A stretch of DNA of 64,000 nucleotides from Verrucomicrobiota bacterium (GTDB lineage: Bacteria > Verrucomicrobiota > Verrucomicrobiia > Limisphaerales > Palsa-1400): positions 1 through 64,000 of the forward strand of contig JBEKYR010000002.1 in NCBI GenBank assembly GCA_049510745.1, read 5' to 3'. Position 1 is the stretch's first letter, and each line of letters opens with the position of its first letter. The position numbers were made by a program. Shown here one piece after another: positions 4,801 through 19,800 of the stretch.

Positions 4801-7800
4801 GGTGAGGACCTGGCCGCCGTCGAGCAAAGGATGGGCCAGGAGTTTTTCCATGGCCTGCTCGGCACGCTTTTCGCCGGAGGCTTCGGCGGTGGCGAACAAA
4901 CTGGCGGCATGGCGTCCGCGGGTGACAGAACAGAGATCGGCGAAATCGACGTTGATCAAACCGGTCTGGGTCAGGAGGCGCCAGATGCCGCGCAGGCCCT
5001 CGGTCAGGAGGCTGTTGCTGATTTTAAACCCTTCCAGGACGCTGGTTTTTTCATCGAGCAATTTGAACAGCTTCTGGTTGGGCAGGCAGATGACGGCGTC
5101 GGCCGCCGCCTTGAGTTGTTGCAGGCCGCTCTGGGCCTGAAGCTGGCGGCGTCCGCCTTCGAATTCAAAGGGCAAGGTGACCAGGGCCAAAACGAGCGCG
5201 CCGCTTTCGCGCGCGACGCGGGCAATGACCGGGGCCGCGCCGGTGCCGGTGCCGCCGCCCAAGCCGGCGAGCAGGAAAATGATGTCGGCCCCGGCGCAGA
5301 AGTCGCGAACTTTTTCCAAATCGTCCTCCGCGGCGGCGCGTCCGAGATCGGGGTCGCCGCCGGCGCCCAAGCCGCGCATGCGGGTGGCGCCGAGGACGAA
5401 TTTGGCCGGGGCGGGGCAGGCGTCCAGGGACTGGGAATCGGTGTTGATGGCCAGAAAGTCCACCTCGGCGAAGGCGGCATGGGAGGCGAAGCCGGCGGCG
5501 TTGCAGCCGGCGCCGCCGATGCCAAAGACCCTGAGGGAAAGTTTCTTCCTGATGGCCGGCTGGCCGGGGATTTCAAGCGGGGTGGTCATGGATCACCTTT
5601 TGAAGATTTCGGCAAACGTCTTTTTCAGGCCGTCGGCAAAGCCGTTGGGCGACTTGCGCTTCTGCTGCAAGGAGCCGAATTTGACCAGGCCGATGGCGGT
5701 GGCGAACTCCGGCTGGTCGAGGGCGGATTTGAGGCCGCTGATGGAGTTGGTCTTGCCCAGGAAGGCGGGCAATTCAAAGACAGTCGCGGCCAGTTCGCGC
5801 ACGCCGGCAATCCGCGCCCCGCCGCCGCAGAGGAAGACGCCGGCGCGCAGGCGGTCGAGCAGACCCAGGTGGGAAAGCTCGGACTCGATCAGCTCGAAGG
5901 TTTCCTCCAGGCGCAGCACCATGATGCGGCGGAGGTGTTCGAGATTGATGATCTTGGCCGGCAAGCCCAGGGCGCCGGGGGAGGAGAGGGTCTGGCCTTT
6001 GAGGGAGGATTCGAGCAGGGCGGAGCCGTGCTCGATCTTCAATTGTTCGGCGCGGCTCAGCGGCACCTTCAATCCGTAGGCCAGATCGTTGGAAATGTGG
6101 TCGCCGCCCACCGCCAGGACGCCGGTGTGTTTGATGATCCCCTCGGCATAGACGGCGTAATTGGTGGTGCCGCCGCCGAGGTCGATGACGAGCGATCCGA
6201 GTTCCTTTTGCTCGTTGGAGAGGAGGGCGAGGGCGGAGGCCAGCCCTGTAAAGACGATTTCATCGACTTCCAGTTGGAGGCCCTTGACCACGGCGATGGA
6301 ATTCTTGAGGCGATCGACGTGCCCATGCACGACGTGGACATCCACCTCGACGCGGGCGCCGTACATGCCGACCGGATTGAGGATGCCGCTCTGGCCATCG
6401 ACATGAAAATGCTGGCGGATGGCGTGGACGACGGTGTGGTCGGCGGGAAGATTGATCGCCTTGGCGTTCTTGATCACATCCTGCACGTCCTCGGCGGCGA
6501 TTTCCCGGTCGGCGGAGACGACGGGGTGGACGCCGTGGTTGTTGAAACCGCGGAGGTGGTTTCCGGTGACGCCCAGATAGACGCTGCGAATTTCGACATT
6601 GGCCATTTGCTCGGCCTCGACGATGGCGTTGCGGACGTCTTCCTCCGCCAGGGCGGCGTCGGCGATCTCGCCTTTGCGGACGCCGCGGGAGCGGGCCTGG
6701 CCGACGCCAATGAGGTTCAAGGCGTTGGCGGCGTTAATTTCGCCGGCAACGACGCAGATTTTGGAGGTGCCGATTTCCAGGCCGACGATGATGGAGGAGG
6801 AATCAAACATGTTTCCTTTTGGGGCGGGAAGGTTTGAGGGCATGGGGCGGCACCGGGGGCAGGGAGGCGGCGGCGACCCAGCGCACGGGCAGATTATTGG
6901 AGATGGAGAGGTCCAGCCAGGCGATGGCCTTGCCCCATTTCTGGTATTGATCGTAGATCAACCGCCAGCGGCGCAACTGGGTGGCAAAATTGTTGAACGA
7001 AAACGAAATCTCGGCCCCCTGCGTGGTGGTGACCTGCAAAACCTCCGGCACGGTGAGATTGATCCGCTCCAGTTCCACCAAGCCGGTCATGGGCGAATGA
7101 TCGAACTCGCACAACAGCCGGAGGGCGGCGCGGATTTGCGGCGCCTCGGCCGGCCGGCCCGGCAGCACGTCGGCGGCCTGGACGCCGACGAGGATGGGCA
7201 GGCGCTGGTTGACGGGCGGAGGCGCGGTGCGCCAGCGCGGGTCCAGCGGTTTCATGGTGTAACCGTCTTCGTCGAAGTCATAGACCGCCTGCTCCAGTTT
7301 GCCGCCCCGGCCGGCGGCGGTGACGATGGTTTGGGCGATTGGCTCGCGCTCGGTGACCTGGAGCCTGAGGGTGTGGGGCAAAACGCGCTCGACGGCGACA
7401 GATTGAATGAACGGCTGCAACTCCAGATCGCGTTTAACCCGCATCAAATCCAGCGCCATGAGGTTTTCGCCCGTCCTCACCATGGCCCAGCGGCGAATGG
7501 CCTCGGCTGTGAGCACCCCGTCGGTTTGGACATCAATTTCCCGGATGGCAAAGGCGTCGTTCTTGTAGATCAGGCTGTCCAGCAGCCACTGTTCACCGCG
7601 CCAGAGCACCAAGCCGATCACCCCCAGCGCGAAGACCACGCCCAGGCCGATGCCGGCGATGCGGAAACGCGCGGCGCGGGTCTGGCCGGCGCGCAATCTC
7701 ACGTCCAGCAATTCTTCCCGCTCGGCGAAGCGGCGGTTTTTCGGTTTTCGCTGGAGCCAGTGGAACATGTTATTTTTTCGGCGAACGTTCGAGCGCCAGA

Positions 7801-16800: not shown

Positions 16801-19800
16801 CCATGGGGAAGTCGCCGGCATGGTTGGGATCGAAATTGGGCAGCGTGGCCAGGGCCAGAATCTCGCCTGTGCGCGGGCGGAGCATGAGGGCGGAGGCGCT
16901 GATGGGGGAATGCTTTTCCATGCCGATGGCCAATTCGCTCTCCAGGATGTTCTGCAGGCCGGCATCGAGGGTCAGCACGACATTGAGGCCGTCGCGCGGG
17001 GCCACGTCCTCATCGCGGTAGGCGACCAACTCGCGCTGGCGCTTGTCCATCTCCGTCTTGCGCCAGCCGGGAATGCCGCTGAGCTTGGAGTTAAAGGCCA
17101 GCTCGATGCCGTCGAAGCCGGTGAGTTCATCGTCGCCGGCCACGTAACCCAAAACATGGGCCGCCAGGCGCTGTCCGGGATAATACCGGATTTGGTCCTC
17201 GTTGGAGAAAACCGCCTTGGTGCGGAGATTGTGGTAGAAGGCCCTTTGGCGCGGGGGCAGTTTCGCCTCGTTGATGGCCGGGCAAAGCTGGGCTATGGTT
17301 TGCCTGATTTTTTCCCACGTTTCGAGCGGCACTTTGCGCTTGAGGACGACGTACCTGGAAAGGTTGGTTTTGCCGTGGTCGGCCCAAAGACGCGGGAGGA
17401 GGCGTTCAGCCAGGCGGGTTTCATCGGAGCCGAGCAAAGGGGCCAGGGCGCGGGCGACTTCCTGGCGATGGTCGCCGAGCAAGGTGGGGTCGGCGCAAAC
17501 GACCTTGGCAGGCTGGCTGGTGGCCAGCGGGATGCCGCGGCAGTCGAGAATCTGCCCGCGAACCGGTTGGCGCTGGAAGGTTCGGACCGTGTTGCCGGCC
17601 GCCAGCTTCTGGAGTTCGTCATGGCGCAAGACCTGCAAATCCACCAGGCGGAAGCCGAGCGCCGCCAGCGCGCCGCTCAGGAAAAAGGCCAGCCAGAATA
17701 ACTTTCGGTATTGCGTCGCCACATTCATTTCAAAGCATCAGCCGGCCGCCCGCGCCGTTCAGTTCCTCCCCCCAAACCACGCGAGCGGCGGCTAAATCAG
17801 TTTCTGCGCCCTCCCACGCCCGCCTGGGCCTGCCGCTGGTCGGCGGCGGGTTGAACGGCCTGCTCCGGGTCGGGCGTGTCCACCAGGCGGATGACCTGGG
17901 AGAGCGCCGGCGGGCCGAGACCGAGATTCAGTTTTTTCACGCGGGCGTCCAAGGCAACGGGGGAACATAAGATGGCCAGTTGATCACGCCGCATCTTGTT
18001 TTCCCGCTCCAACTCGGCCAGACGCAACTCGCGCTCCTTGATCTGCCGGCCCAGGACATCAATCTGGTTCTTATACCAGACGTATCCCACGCCCAGGGTG
18101 ACAAAGAAGGCGCACATCGCCAACGCCATCAGGACCGGCGCCAGCCGCAGGGCAGATTCACTTTTCCGGTTTCGGGCCATCCGCTTTTCTCAACTCCGTT
18201 CTTTGCTCAAATTTTCAGTTTCTCCAGCACCCGGCATTGGGCGCTGCGGCTGCGCGGATTGTCGCGCAACTCCGCCGGGCCGGGCACGATCGCCTTGCGC
18301 GACACCCACCGCGCCTGGGGTGGACGCGCCTGCCGCAATTCCGGCACGTCCACCTCCCCGGGCAGGTCGTAACCCCGCGACAGACGGCGGCCAAACTCCT
18401 TCACCACCCGGTCCTCCACCGAGTGGAAGGTGATGGCCGCCAGTCTGCCGCCGGGCTTCAAAATCTTCATCGCCGCTTCCAGTCCGCGGCGCAACGAGTC
18501 CAGCTCGTCATTGACCGCCACGCGCAGCGCCAGAAACACTTTCGTCGCCGGGTGCGTCTTGCGCCCGGCCCGCGGCGAGATTCTTTCCATCAACGCGGCC
18601 AATTGCCGCGTCCGCGTGAAGGGCCGTTGCTCGCGCTCGCGCGCCACTTCCCGCGCCACCCGCCGCGCTTGCTGTTCGCCGCCGTATTTCCAAAAAATCT
18701 CCGCCAACTCGTCCGCGGTCGCCTGGTTCAGCAGCATCGCCGCCGTCAGTTCCTGCCCCTGGTCCATCCGCATGTCCAACGGGCCATCCTGCTGAAAGCT
18801 GAAACCGCGCCCGGGCGCGTCCAATTGTGGTGAACTGACCCCAAGGTCCAGCAGCACCCCGTCGCAGCTTTCCGCCGCGATCCAATCGGCCATCCCGGCA
18901 AAGTCCCCCTGCCGGATCTCAAATCGGCCCGCAAACTCGGCCAGCCGCTCCCGCGCCGCTTCCACCGCCGCGGCATCCCGGTCGCATCCCACCAGGCGGC
19001 CCGTCGGCGCGCTCGCCCGCAAAATCGCCGCGGCGTGCCCGCCACCGCCGAGCGTCCCGTCGGCCACCAGGCTGCCCGGCGTCGGACGCAGGGCCGCGAG
19101 CACCTCCGCTTCCATGACCGATTTGTGAGCAAAGCCAGGCACCGATCATGGTTTCCCCATCAGTTTCTCAGGCTCAACCGTTTCACTCTGAGCCGGTTTG
19201 AGCGTCTTCTTTTCCAGCCCGGCGCTTTTTTCCACCGTCACCACTTCCAGGTCGTCTTCGCTTAAATCGTTGCGCACTACGGTCACTTTGTTCAAAGCCA
19301 GTTCGGTTTGGACGGACCGCGCGCGCCCGGCGGGGCTTTTGCGCCGCAAAAGGAATTCCTTCCACCAACGCGCGGCGCGGCGCCAGATGCCTTCGGGCGA
19401 TGGCCGGTCCTCCGGCGGCTTGACCGCCACTTTGGGCGCAGTCGGGGCCGCGTCGTCGCGTTTTGGTGAAACGGCCGCTTCCACCGCCGGATGCGGTGGC
19501 TCAAACAGCGCCGTTTGGGAAGGTTCCGGGGCCGGGCGGGACGTGGTGGGGGGCGGACGTTTTGGCCCGGCAAAGTGGGGCAGCACGTTTCCGGCCGGCA
19601 GTTTGTAAGCGCCCCGGCGGTCCTTCACGCCTCCGAAGGTGTGCCCCTTGGTCAATAAACTCAACGGATTCATGCTACTCCATCATTTGCAGGGCCTGCT
19701 GCAACAGCGCGTCGTCCATCCCTTCCACCTGCGTGTAACGAGCCGGGCTCCAAATCTCGAAGCGATCCAGCATCCCCACCAGCACCGCCTGGGTTTTGAT

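Follow-up and report, generated by a model that had tools for sequence, protein, structure and literature searches.

Loss of murC, murD and murE from the dcw cluster of a Limisphaerales bacterium and a possible Mpl-dependent use of scavenged stem tripeptide

Introduction

Neither the dcw cluster nor the remaining genome of a Verrucomicrobiota bacterium of the order Limisphaerales (assembly GCA_049510745.1) contains a recognisable murC, murD or murE, and we consider it likely, with a probability of roughly 60%, that the bacterium scavenges the stem tripeptide, which Mpl then attaches to the wall precursor. The gene content suggests that this tripeptide would originate from wall fragments of other bacteria. 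Nearly all walled bacteria are regarded as having MurC, MurD and MurE and as needing them; in the present case, these enzymes have been dropped repeatedly within a widespread verrucomicrobial order, by free-living members with large genomes in which the remainder of the pathway is intact. If scavenging is true, cross-feeding on wall fragments would be more common than the case of Fidelibacter multiformis IA91 suggests, and a supplement of tripeptide or digested peptidoglycan could aid the culture of a poorly cultured group and alter cell shape; if it is false, an as yet unrecognised ligase exists. As cultured members of the order exist, the question is directly testable.

Results and Discussion

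Closed ligase slots in the dcw cluster

The window, i.e., the whole stretch of 64,000 nucleotides that was analysed (positions 1 to 64,000 of contig JBEKYR010000002.1), carries the cluster on the minus strand in the order mraZ-orf175-rsmH-ftsL-ftsI-murF-mraY-lysM-ftsW-murG-murB-ddl-ftsQ-ftsA-ftsZ. Its upstream end (17797..20133) comprises mraZ, a 175-aa ORF, rsmH and a putative ftsL, which was assigned by position and has no family match. The adjoining ftsI (15860..17728) encodes the septal transpeptidase with intact SxxK, SxN and KTG motifs. Between ftsI and murF, the empty murE slot is an intergenic gap of 55 bp (15805..15859), a position that murE occupies in order members with an intact gene set and in 2 of 78 related loci. 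The sole Mur ligase gene inside the cluster, murF (14407..15804; TIGR01143 387.9 bits, cut-off 288.6), is followed by mraY (13251..14405; family match), a gap of 429 bp, and the gene of a two-LysM-domain protein (11988..12821) that is a fixed member of the dcw cluster in Limisphaerales. Next come ftsW (10774..11922) and murG (9600..10781), both with family matches and intact motifs. The murC slot between murG and murB, filled by murC in 22 of 58 order representatives, is reduced to an intergenic gap of 4 bp (9596..9599). Here murB (8681..9595; family match) stands alone without a fused MurC domain; the D-Ala-D-Ala ligase gene ddl (7770..8684; family match, motifs intact) and the downstream end formed by ftsQ, ftsA and ftsZ (4300..7804; family matches) complete the cluster. 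The order ftsI-murF-mraY-lysM-ftsW-murG-murB-ddl given in a preliminary description is borne out, and the slots are closed in mid-contig.

That description had called the three genes cleanly missing. Their absence from cluster and genome holds, whereas "cleanly" does not: A scar of 42 codons (13081..13206, minus strand) in the murD slot derives from the C-terminal part of murD and aligns with positions 398-439 of an HMM (456 positions) built from intact MurD of the order. Its score of 16.2 bits is equalled by none of 500 shuffles and is the highest among 952 intergenic strands, with the runner-up at 4.6 bits; comparable murD scars occur in 11 of 66 related loci. Because the scar lies in its slot, it points to deletion and not to misassembly. 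A promoter scan across it returned none on the coding strand. An apparent N-terminal murD remnant was discarded, as the match was to mraY sequence included in the queries.

Absence from the genome and the family

A six-frame genome search with PF08245 yielded three matches, namely MurF, Mpl and FolC, and order-specific HMMs of intact MurC (n=19), MurD (n=22) and MurE (n=22) added no further Mur ligase. Hence, MurF and Mpl are indeed the only Mur ligases detected, and the murC, murD and murE genes that the canonical MurC-D-E-F pathway requires are lacking. Among the 31 genomes of the family, three PF08245 matches were obtained in 26, four in one, two in three and one in one; the fourth match in the one genome is a fragment that lies at the end of a contig and scores below the cut-off. 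In none of the 31 does a match fall into the MurE score band, and nothing beyond MurF, Mpl and FolC was found in any, in agreement with the family-wide lack described earlier. The absence of an alanine racemase match in this genome was likewise reproduced, and Asp/Glu racemase also gave none.

The bin is 94% complete and consists of 85 contigs (5.6 Mb, 4026 called proteins), so that the three genes might reside on unassembled or unbinned DNA; they might also have diverged past detection. Against missing DNA stand the closed mid-contig slots with the scar in place, the same lack throughout the family, and the single-record chromosomes L049 (5.9 Mb) and L052 (6.0 Mb), which give 2 and 3 PF08245 matches, respectively; against divergence stands the failure of the order-specific HMMs to detect an additional ligase. 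We regard this explanation as already largely refuted and its remaining probability as very small.

Graded loss across Limisphaerales

As had been proposed, the loss reaches beyond the family: in 36 of the 58 genomes that represent families of the order, the murC slot does not hold the gene, and the state of this slot changes 15 times on a tree. The loss is nested, murC without murD and murE being found in 0 of 58 representatives. The carbamyl-lysine position of MurD is kept in all 22 copies from genomes with murC, in 4 of 6 from genomes with murE but not murC, and in 1 of 10 from genomes with neither; the P-loop lysine of MurE is lost in 4 of 9 copies from murC-less genomes. The order thus presents a graded series in which murC is gone, then MurD and MurE are dead, and then scars are left. 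The order of loss read from these sequences is murC first, followed by the catalytic residues of MurD and MurE. Asp/Glu racemase family members occur in 5 of 20 genomes without MurE versus 15 of 20 with it, and alr in 10 of 20 versus 18 of 20 (neither comparison is tree-corrected).

In 23 of 78 loci, the murE slot is filled by a gene that we take to be SIMPL-like. This gene was dismissed as a replacement ligase: It has no NCBIfam match, does not look like a ligase, also adjoins intact murE and is absent here.

Mpl as the likely entry point

The Mpl of this genome is assigned to its family by scores of 463.3 bits with TIGR01081 (cut-off 388.7) and 313.4 bits with the murC model (cut-off 335.1), and Mpl was found in 63 of 63 families of the order. 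The Mpl-specific residues listed in PMC3060825 were matched by motif in 21 copies rather than by alignment to the Psychrobacter protein. Tyr35, Asn69-Arg73-Gly74, the Tyr182 loop, Arg357-Arg358 and His376-His377 as well as Glu402-Pro-Arg and Ser483-Asn-Gly are all represented; several copies carry Gly in place of Ala375 and Thr in place of Ser405, and the motifs are alike in genomes with and without murCDE. The tripeptide site appears essentially unchanged across the 21 copies, and ligation of tripeptide to UDP-MurNAc is predicted. No conserved mpl operon was seen in the 21 loci, the commonest neighbour being a gatB-like gene (named from sequence) in 5; among the 120 matches listed in an Mpl protein search, no cultured strain is named. 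Together with the PF08245 and order-HMM searches, these data uphold the earlier interpretation in its main part, namely a canonical tripeptide that MurC, MurD and MurE cannot build and Mpl as its likely entry point, and weaken two of the alternatives it had raised.

These alternatives hold that Mpl takes the role of MurC or adds a different short substrate and that the resulting non-canonical stem is extended by MurF. Mpl does accept L-Ala weakly (0.7 per min versus 260 for the tripeptide; PMC3060825). If Mpl replaced MurC, however, MurD and MurE should be intact; their decay in most murC-less genomes argues against this role, and in the present genome no MurD or MurE exists to extend L-Ala. 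It could hold in G058, G072 and G078, in which the murC slot is empty and the MurD and MurE motifs are intact. A non-canonical stem would predict a retooled Mpl or MurF. The unchanged motifs of both weaken this reading, those of Mpl also speak against another substrate, and no alignment column of MurF, Ddl or FtsI splits genomes with murCDE from those without better than the RsmH control. We judge such uses of Mpl improbable.

Conserved downstream machinery

The catalytic motifs of MurF, Ddl, MraY, MurG, FtsW and FtsI are intact in murC-less genomes, with no decay or loss of these genes, and mean identities without versus with murCDE are 0.535 versus 0.509 for MurF and 0.638 versus 0.613 for Ddl. 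By this measure, the absence of murCDE makes no difference to the conservation of the downstream wall enzymes. In this genome the mreB-mreC-ORF-pbp2-rodA cluster is complete, dapA and dapB are present, and all genes previously described as kept (murA, murB, mraY, murG, murJ, ftsW, rodA, ftsI, ddl, dapF) were recovered.

Could the wall nevertheless be vestigial or dispensable, and the leftover genes relics or put to another purpose? Limisphaera ngatamarikiensis reportedly has DAP in traces only and lacks visible peptidoglycan, which would fit such a state. Likewise, mur genes are non-essential in Planctopirus limnophila (PMC12283558, in part). Yet the downstream motifs stay intact while the neighbouring MurD and MurE decay, and the full elongation cluster, murA and murJ are kept, which makes a vestigial wall unlikely.

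Scavenging and its genetic basis

In the scavenging model, UDP-MurNAc would be made by MurA and MurB, whose genes are present. An AmpG-like permease would import foreign wall fragments, or an amidase would first release free peptides that are then taken up; NagZ, amidase and an L,D-carboxypeptidase would trim them to the tripeptide. Mpl would ligate the latter to UDP-MurNAc, one step past MurC, MurD and MurE, and MurF would add D-Ala-D-Ala (the Ddl gene is present). By gene content, MraY, MurG, MurJ, FtsW-FtsI and MreBC-PBP2-RodA would perform the later steps. Cells may depend on fragments only facultatively and grow, in the absence of these, with little wall or none. Because Mpl is present order-wide, murC could be lost many times with murD and murE decaying afterwards. 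The model is supported by the single Mpl step that covers all three lost enzymes in combination with the nested loss, by the conserved Mpl residues and downstream enzymes, and by the scarcer racemases where MurE is absent. The salvage genes found here, the lack of a substitute ligase in the families tested and the IA91 precedent (PMC11652737, in part) lend further support.

These salvage genes include a nagZ-like gene adjoining an ampG-like permease gene, a kinase-MurQ fusion with its MurQ domain above cut-off, an Amidase_2 protein, an ElsL-like peptidase and a POT transporter as further candidates, and one cluster of YkuD peptidase, SpmAB-like protein and APC permease; S66 LdcA and an Opp binding protein were not found in this genome. 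Several points count against scavenging. The AmpG-like (157.5 of 350 bits), NagZ-like (194 of 207) and ElsL-like (106.8 of 270) proteins all score below the curated cut-offs, and ElsL-like genes are commoner with murC (19/22) than without (17/36). AmpG-like genes occur in 15 of 36 murC-less versus 2 of 22 murC-containing genomes and SpmAB-like genes in 20 versus 3, a strong raw contrast that did not reach significance when 13 independent pairs were compared (median p of 1 and 0.34, respectively); neither was therefore retained as an enabling gain. Both importers are missing from 10 of the 36 murC-less genomes; the Opp search covered two of these ten, and an Opp-type binding protein was present in both. 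Moreover, three or four murC-less genomes have intact MurD and/or MurE motifs, and no D-Ala source was identified in this genome. Finally, two Limisphaera strains grow axenically, of which one was isolated on starch-supplemented mineral medium and the other needs no yeast extract; should these strains be devoid of murCDE, the dependence could not be strict. The structure model of the SpmAB-like protein (pLDDT 82.7) bears a weak likeness to VcINDY, YdaH and TRAP transporters (TM about 0.4, best E 9e-4), and the comparison indicates no substrate.

A less probable competitor is an unrelated, order-wide non-Mur system that makes tripeptide or UDP-MurNAc-tripeptide de novo, feeds Mpl and renders MurC, MurD and MurE redundant. 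With such a route, the constant retention of Mpl, the repeated loss of murC, which suggests an ancestral bypass, and the growth of cultured order members alone would all be explained. It would also account for the supply of Mpl in murC-containing genomes without an AmpG-like gene, and DapA, DapB and DapF are present. However, a search of the ATP-grasp, GCS2, NRPS, AMP-binding and Fem-like families, in a genome where most of the 4026 proteins have no annotation and an enzyme of unknown fold could thus have escaped, yielded no substitute ligase or patchy candidates only: The ATP-grasp enzymes here are Ddl and proteins reading as AccC, CarB and PurD (named from sequence), GCS2 occurs in 0 of 5 genomes, no NRPS condensation domain and only four AMP-binding-like proteins were found, and Fem-like GNATs are present in 10 of 16. 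A racemase for D-Glu is lacking, the D-amino-acid transaminase candidate was rejected since its top match is IlvE (the second is weaker), and mpl has no conserved partner operon.

Comparison with known systems

Scavenging resembles Mpl recycling in E. coli, Psychrobacter and Acinetobacter, which proceeds via AmpG, NagZ, amidase, LdcA or ElsL, and Mpl (PMC3060825, PMC8649774, both in part), in that the same Mpl family and residues and similar helper genes occur. Elsewhere, recycling supplements MurC, MurD and MurE and contributes 30-60% of the wall (PMC3060825), whereas Mpl is here the only recognisable route to UDP-MurNAc-tripeptide. Within the phylum, Verrucomicrobium spinosum shares the FtsZ-based dcw cluster; unlike here, it has murC(B), murD, murE and alr and requires them (PMC12283558). 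The sections of that paper used here describe dcw genes as highly conserved in Verrucomicrobiota and do not mention Limisphaerales; one supplement file of PMC13608581 lists no mur genes. In the PVC superphylum, Planctomycetia (Pirellulales, Isosphaerales, Gemmatales) also lost cytoplasmic wall genes, including murA, murF, murG, murJ, ftsW and ftsZ (PMC12283558), all of which are retained here, with their motifs intact.

The closest precedent is F. multiformis IA91 (Fidelibacterota, Marine Group A), which builds its wall from exogenous fragments via recycling genes and is coccoid without muropeptides (PMC11652737). Muropeptides sustain IA91, which is unable to synthesise MurNAc, D-Ala, D-Glu, DAP or Lys. 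The present genome likewise misses the de novo stem-peptide genes; in contrast to IA91, it keeps murA and murB for MurNAc and dapA, dapB and dapF for DAP in 5.6 Mb, and only stem ligases and racemases are gone. Dependence was established by culture for IA91 (PMC11652737) and is suggested by gene content for Limisphaerales, within which, in further distinction from IA91, the loss recurs many times with decayed intermediates.

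Closed Ligase Slots in the dcw Cluster

The dcw cluster, carried by the minus strand, has the gene order mraZ, a 175-aa ORF, rsmH, putative ftsL, ftsI, murF, mraY, lysM, ftsW, murG, murB, ddl, ftsQ, ftsA and ftsZ, leaving 55 bp in the murE slot between ftsI and murF, 429 bp in the murD slot between mraY and lysM, and 4 bp in the murC slot between murG and murB. A six-frame search of the source genome for the Mur ligase middle domain (PF08245) returned three genes, MurF, Mpl and FolC, and order-specific HMMs of intact MurC, MurD and MurE added nothing beyond one short match in the murD slot. 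The absence of murC, murD and murE from cluster and genome, as claimed in the preliminary description, is thus real: the slots are closed, no extra ligase is found by HMM, and an artefact is scarcely credible. The absence is not clean, as had been claimed, in the case of murD: a match remains at window 13081-13206, covering HMM positions 398-439 of 456 with 16.2 bits, a score that none of 500 shuffles reached and whose runner-up among 952 intergenic strands was 4.6 bits. Among related loci, 66 contain mraY as well as lysM; there the slot holds a full murD in 12, a C-terminal scar in 11 and neither in 43. Because such a scar occupies the slot here and in related loci, murD was deleted in place.

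The 175-aa ORF (window 19146-19673, minus strand), whose place between mraZ and rsmH is kept in most related loci, has no Pfam or NCBIfam match. In 23 of 78 loci (e.g., locus L014:9214-9996) an unassigned 240-aa gene separates ftsI (or murE) from murF, and window 23152-23820 (plus strand) encodes a small protein bearing a VPDSG-CTERM sorting motif.

Distribution of the Loss

Among the 31 genomes of the family, 26 have three PF08245 matches, four have fewer, and one has four, the fourth being a fragment below the cut-off where a contig ends; matches were assigned by score band and match length, with a sequence check in the source genome only. Two single-record chromosomes carry 2 and 3 matches. 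In a sample of 151 genomes of the order, three matches occur in 47 and two in 2, and a MurE-band match occurs in 66. Of 63 other families, three were omitted for short contigs; from the remaining 60 we took the cluster, dropped three more with fewer than five markers, and scored the slots in 58 genomes, source genome included: all three genes are present in 22, D and E in 6, D alone in 10, E alone in 3, and none of them in 17 (a split murE in G039 was counted as absent). In none of the 58 does murC occur without murD and murE. The loss had been said to go beyond the family; it is wider than stated, with murC absent from its slot in 36 of 58 genomes. On a FastTree tree (3404 columns) murC changes state 15 times, an exact number made uncertain by weak deep branches, and 13 independent pairs fall on well-supported branches. 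As murC always occupies its ancestral slot, the majority of these changes probably represent losses.

Two records titled Pedosphaera sp. (L035, L062) have four PF08245 matches each, with murD in its slot and the murE and murC slots empty; G060, murC-negative by slot, has a fifth match. At L003:1360-3306 FolC carries a fused C-terminal HAD hydrolase, and long FolC frames are seen again in several genomes of the family.

Mpl and the Decay of MurD and MurE

Mpl is present in every one of the 63 families (60 above cut-off, three partial). Its tripeptide-site motifs, with residues as given in PMC3060825, are essentially unchanged in 21 copies, taken from murC-containing and murC-less genomes alike. 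The same paper gives a rate of 260 per min for the tripeptide versus 0.7 for L-Ala (PMC3060825). Since the Mpl product is the joint product of MurC, MurD and MurE, their loss is nested, and our best reading, at a probability of about 0.6, is that the stem tripeptide is scavenged and joined via Mpl. In G043, which lacks both an AmpG-like gene and an Opp binding protein, mpl stands head to head with an mreB-mreC-pbp2-rodA cluster (L193).

The motifs of MurD and MurE, which we take to map onto catalytic residues, are intact in all 22 genomes with C, D and E. At the MurD carbamylation position (the role of Lys198 is described in PMC3060825), lysine persists in 4 of 6 D+E genomes and 1 of 10 D-only genomes; 2 of 10 D-only genomes keep the glutamate that follows the MurD P-loop, and the P-loop lysine is lost in 4 of 9 MurE copies of genomes without murC. 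Three genomes (G058, G072, G078) lack murC yet keep D and E motifs intact; these may be recent losses or exceptions. Mpl as source of UDP-MurNAc-L-Ala would keep MurD and MurE constrained, whereas both erode without murC, and a non-canonical stem appears quite improbable. In family f26, 8 of 10 genomes lack MurC and MurE yet have a full-length match of MurD size; the one copy checked, that of G055 (L123), has lost two catalytic positions, and a dead MurD kept across this family may have a scaffold role.

Downstream, the motifs of MurF, Ddl, MraY, MurG, FtsW and FtsI are intact, and these proteins are equally conserved in murCDE-less and complete genomes, which makes a dispensable wall improbable; no columns separating the two sets beat the RsmH control, except a modest MraY one (0.47 vs 0.39). 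The source genome also has murA, murJ and mreB-mreC-ORF-pbp2-rodA, and we infer that, from UDP-MurNAc-tripeptide on, the wall pathway probably still operates.

Search for a Substitute Ligase

A de novo route of an unrecognised kind could also make the stem; an unrelated enzyme might lie among the 4026 called proteins, most of which carry no annotation. We consider this unlikely, as the searches gave no substitute ligase: ATP-grasp proteins of the source genome comprise Ddl and three housekeeping types, an NRPS condensation domain is missing there, GCS2 is absent from 5 of 5 genomes, and Fem-like GNATs occur without pattern in 10 of 16. Four AMP-binding-like proteins were found. Lysine synthesis would account for the presence of DapA, DapB and DapF, though lysA was not located. 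A D-amino-acid transaminase candidate was rejected, the match being IlvE. A CarB-like ATP-grasp protein (labelled from sequence) appears as two separate ORFs on different contigs of the source genome, G000 (C2:224170-225675 and C5:119191-120981).

Supply of the Tripeptide

For scavenging via Mpl, the source genome offers an AmpG-like permease adjoining a NagZ-like gene and an ElsL-like peptidase without evident signal (all three score below curated cut-offs), an Amidase_2 protein that begins like a lipoprotein, a POT transporter, and a sugar kinase fused to the MurNAc-6-phosphate etherase MurQ (G000:C76:770-2584, L175); neither S66 LdcA nor an Opp binding protein was found there. Four co-oriented genes (G000:C54:260-4619, L257) encode a signal-bearing YkuD-family peptidase, a fused SpmA/SpmB-like membrane protein, an APC permease and a possible amidase; for the last, the closest Atlas cluster with a name is Amidase_2 (0.90), no more than a lead. 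SpmAB-like genes adjoin a YkuD peptidase in three genomes and LdcA-like genes (a label likewise from sequence) in two others; their products may import D-Ala or peptide.

In a panel of 20 MurE-negative versus 20 MurE-positive genomes, picked by MurE status, AmpG-like genes occur in 13 versus 1, the Asp/Glu racemase family in 5 versus 15, and alr in 10 versus 18. On the 58-genome tree, murC-negative and murC-positive genomes have AmpG-like genes in 15/36 versus 2/22 and SpmAB-like genes in 20/36 versus 3/22, enrichments that are non-significant when tested on independent pairs (median p 1 and 0.34). ElsL-like genes occur in 19/22 murC-positive and 17/36 murC-negative genomes. Recycling looks ancestral in the order, and no single importer explains the losses. 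In the family member G016 alanine racemase lies in two pieces (C1:2931736-2932819); three other family genomes tested have none.

Relation to Cultured Strains and Known Systems

The main tension with scavenging via Mpl would come from the pure-culture growth of Limisphaera, should those strains lack murCDE. L. ngatamarikiensis is reportedly described with trace DAP and no visible peptidoglycan. Two Limisphaera strains are cocci growing in pure culture; one was isolated on a mineral medium containing starch, and the other needs no yeast extract (PMC13608581). Fidelibacter IA91 is coccoid without muropeptides (PMC11652737). A facultative wall, with cells that have elongasome genes staying round in pure culture, would reconcile this growth, the L. 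ngatamarikiensis wall data and the IA91 shape.

In a section of PMC12283558 the dcw genes are described as highly conserved across Verrucomicrobiota, and Limisphaerales are not mentioned there. Our search on mur genes, mpl, dcw and peptidoglycan in Verrucomicrobia, Limisphaera and Pedosphaera, mostly outside subscription papers, listed no report of this murC/D/E loss. Scavenging via Mpl would be a variant on wall building from other cells' fragments, already shown by culture in IA91 (PMC11652737). Compared with IA91, the source genome differs in genome size and keeps MurA, MurB and DAP synthesis, and this order displays repeated loss with visible intermediates.
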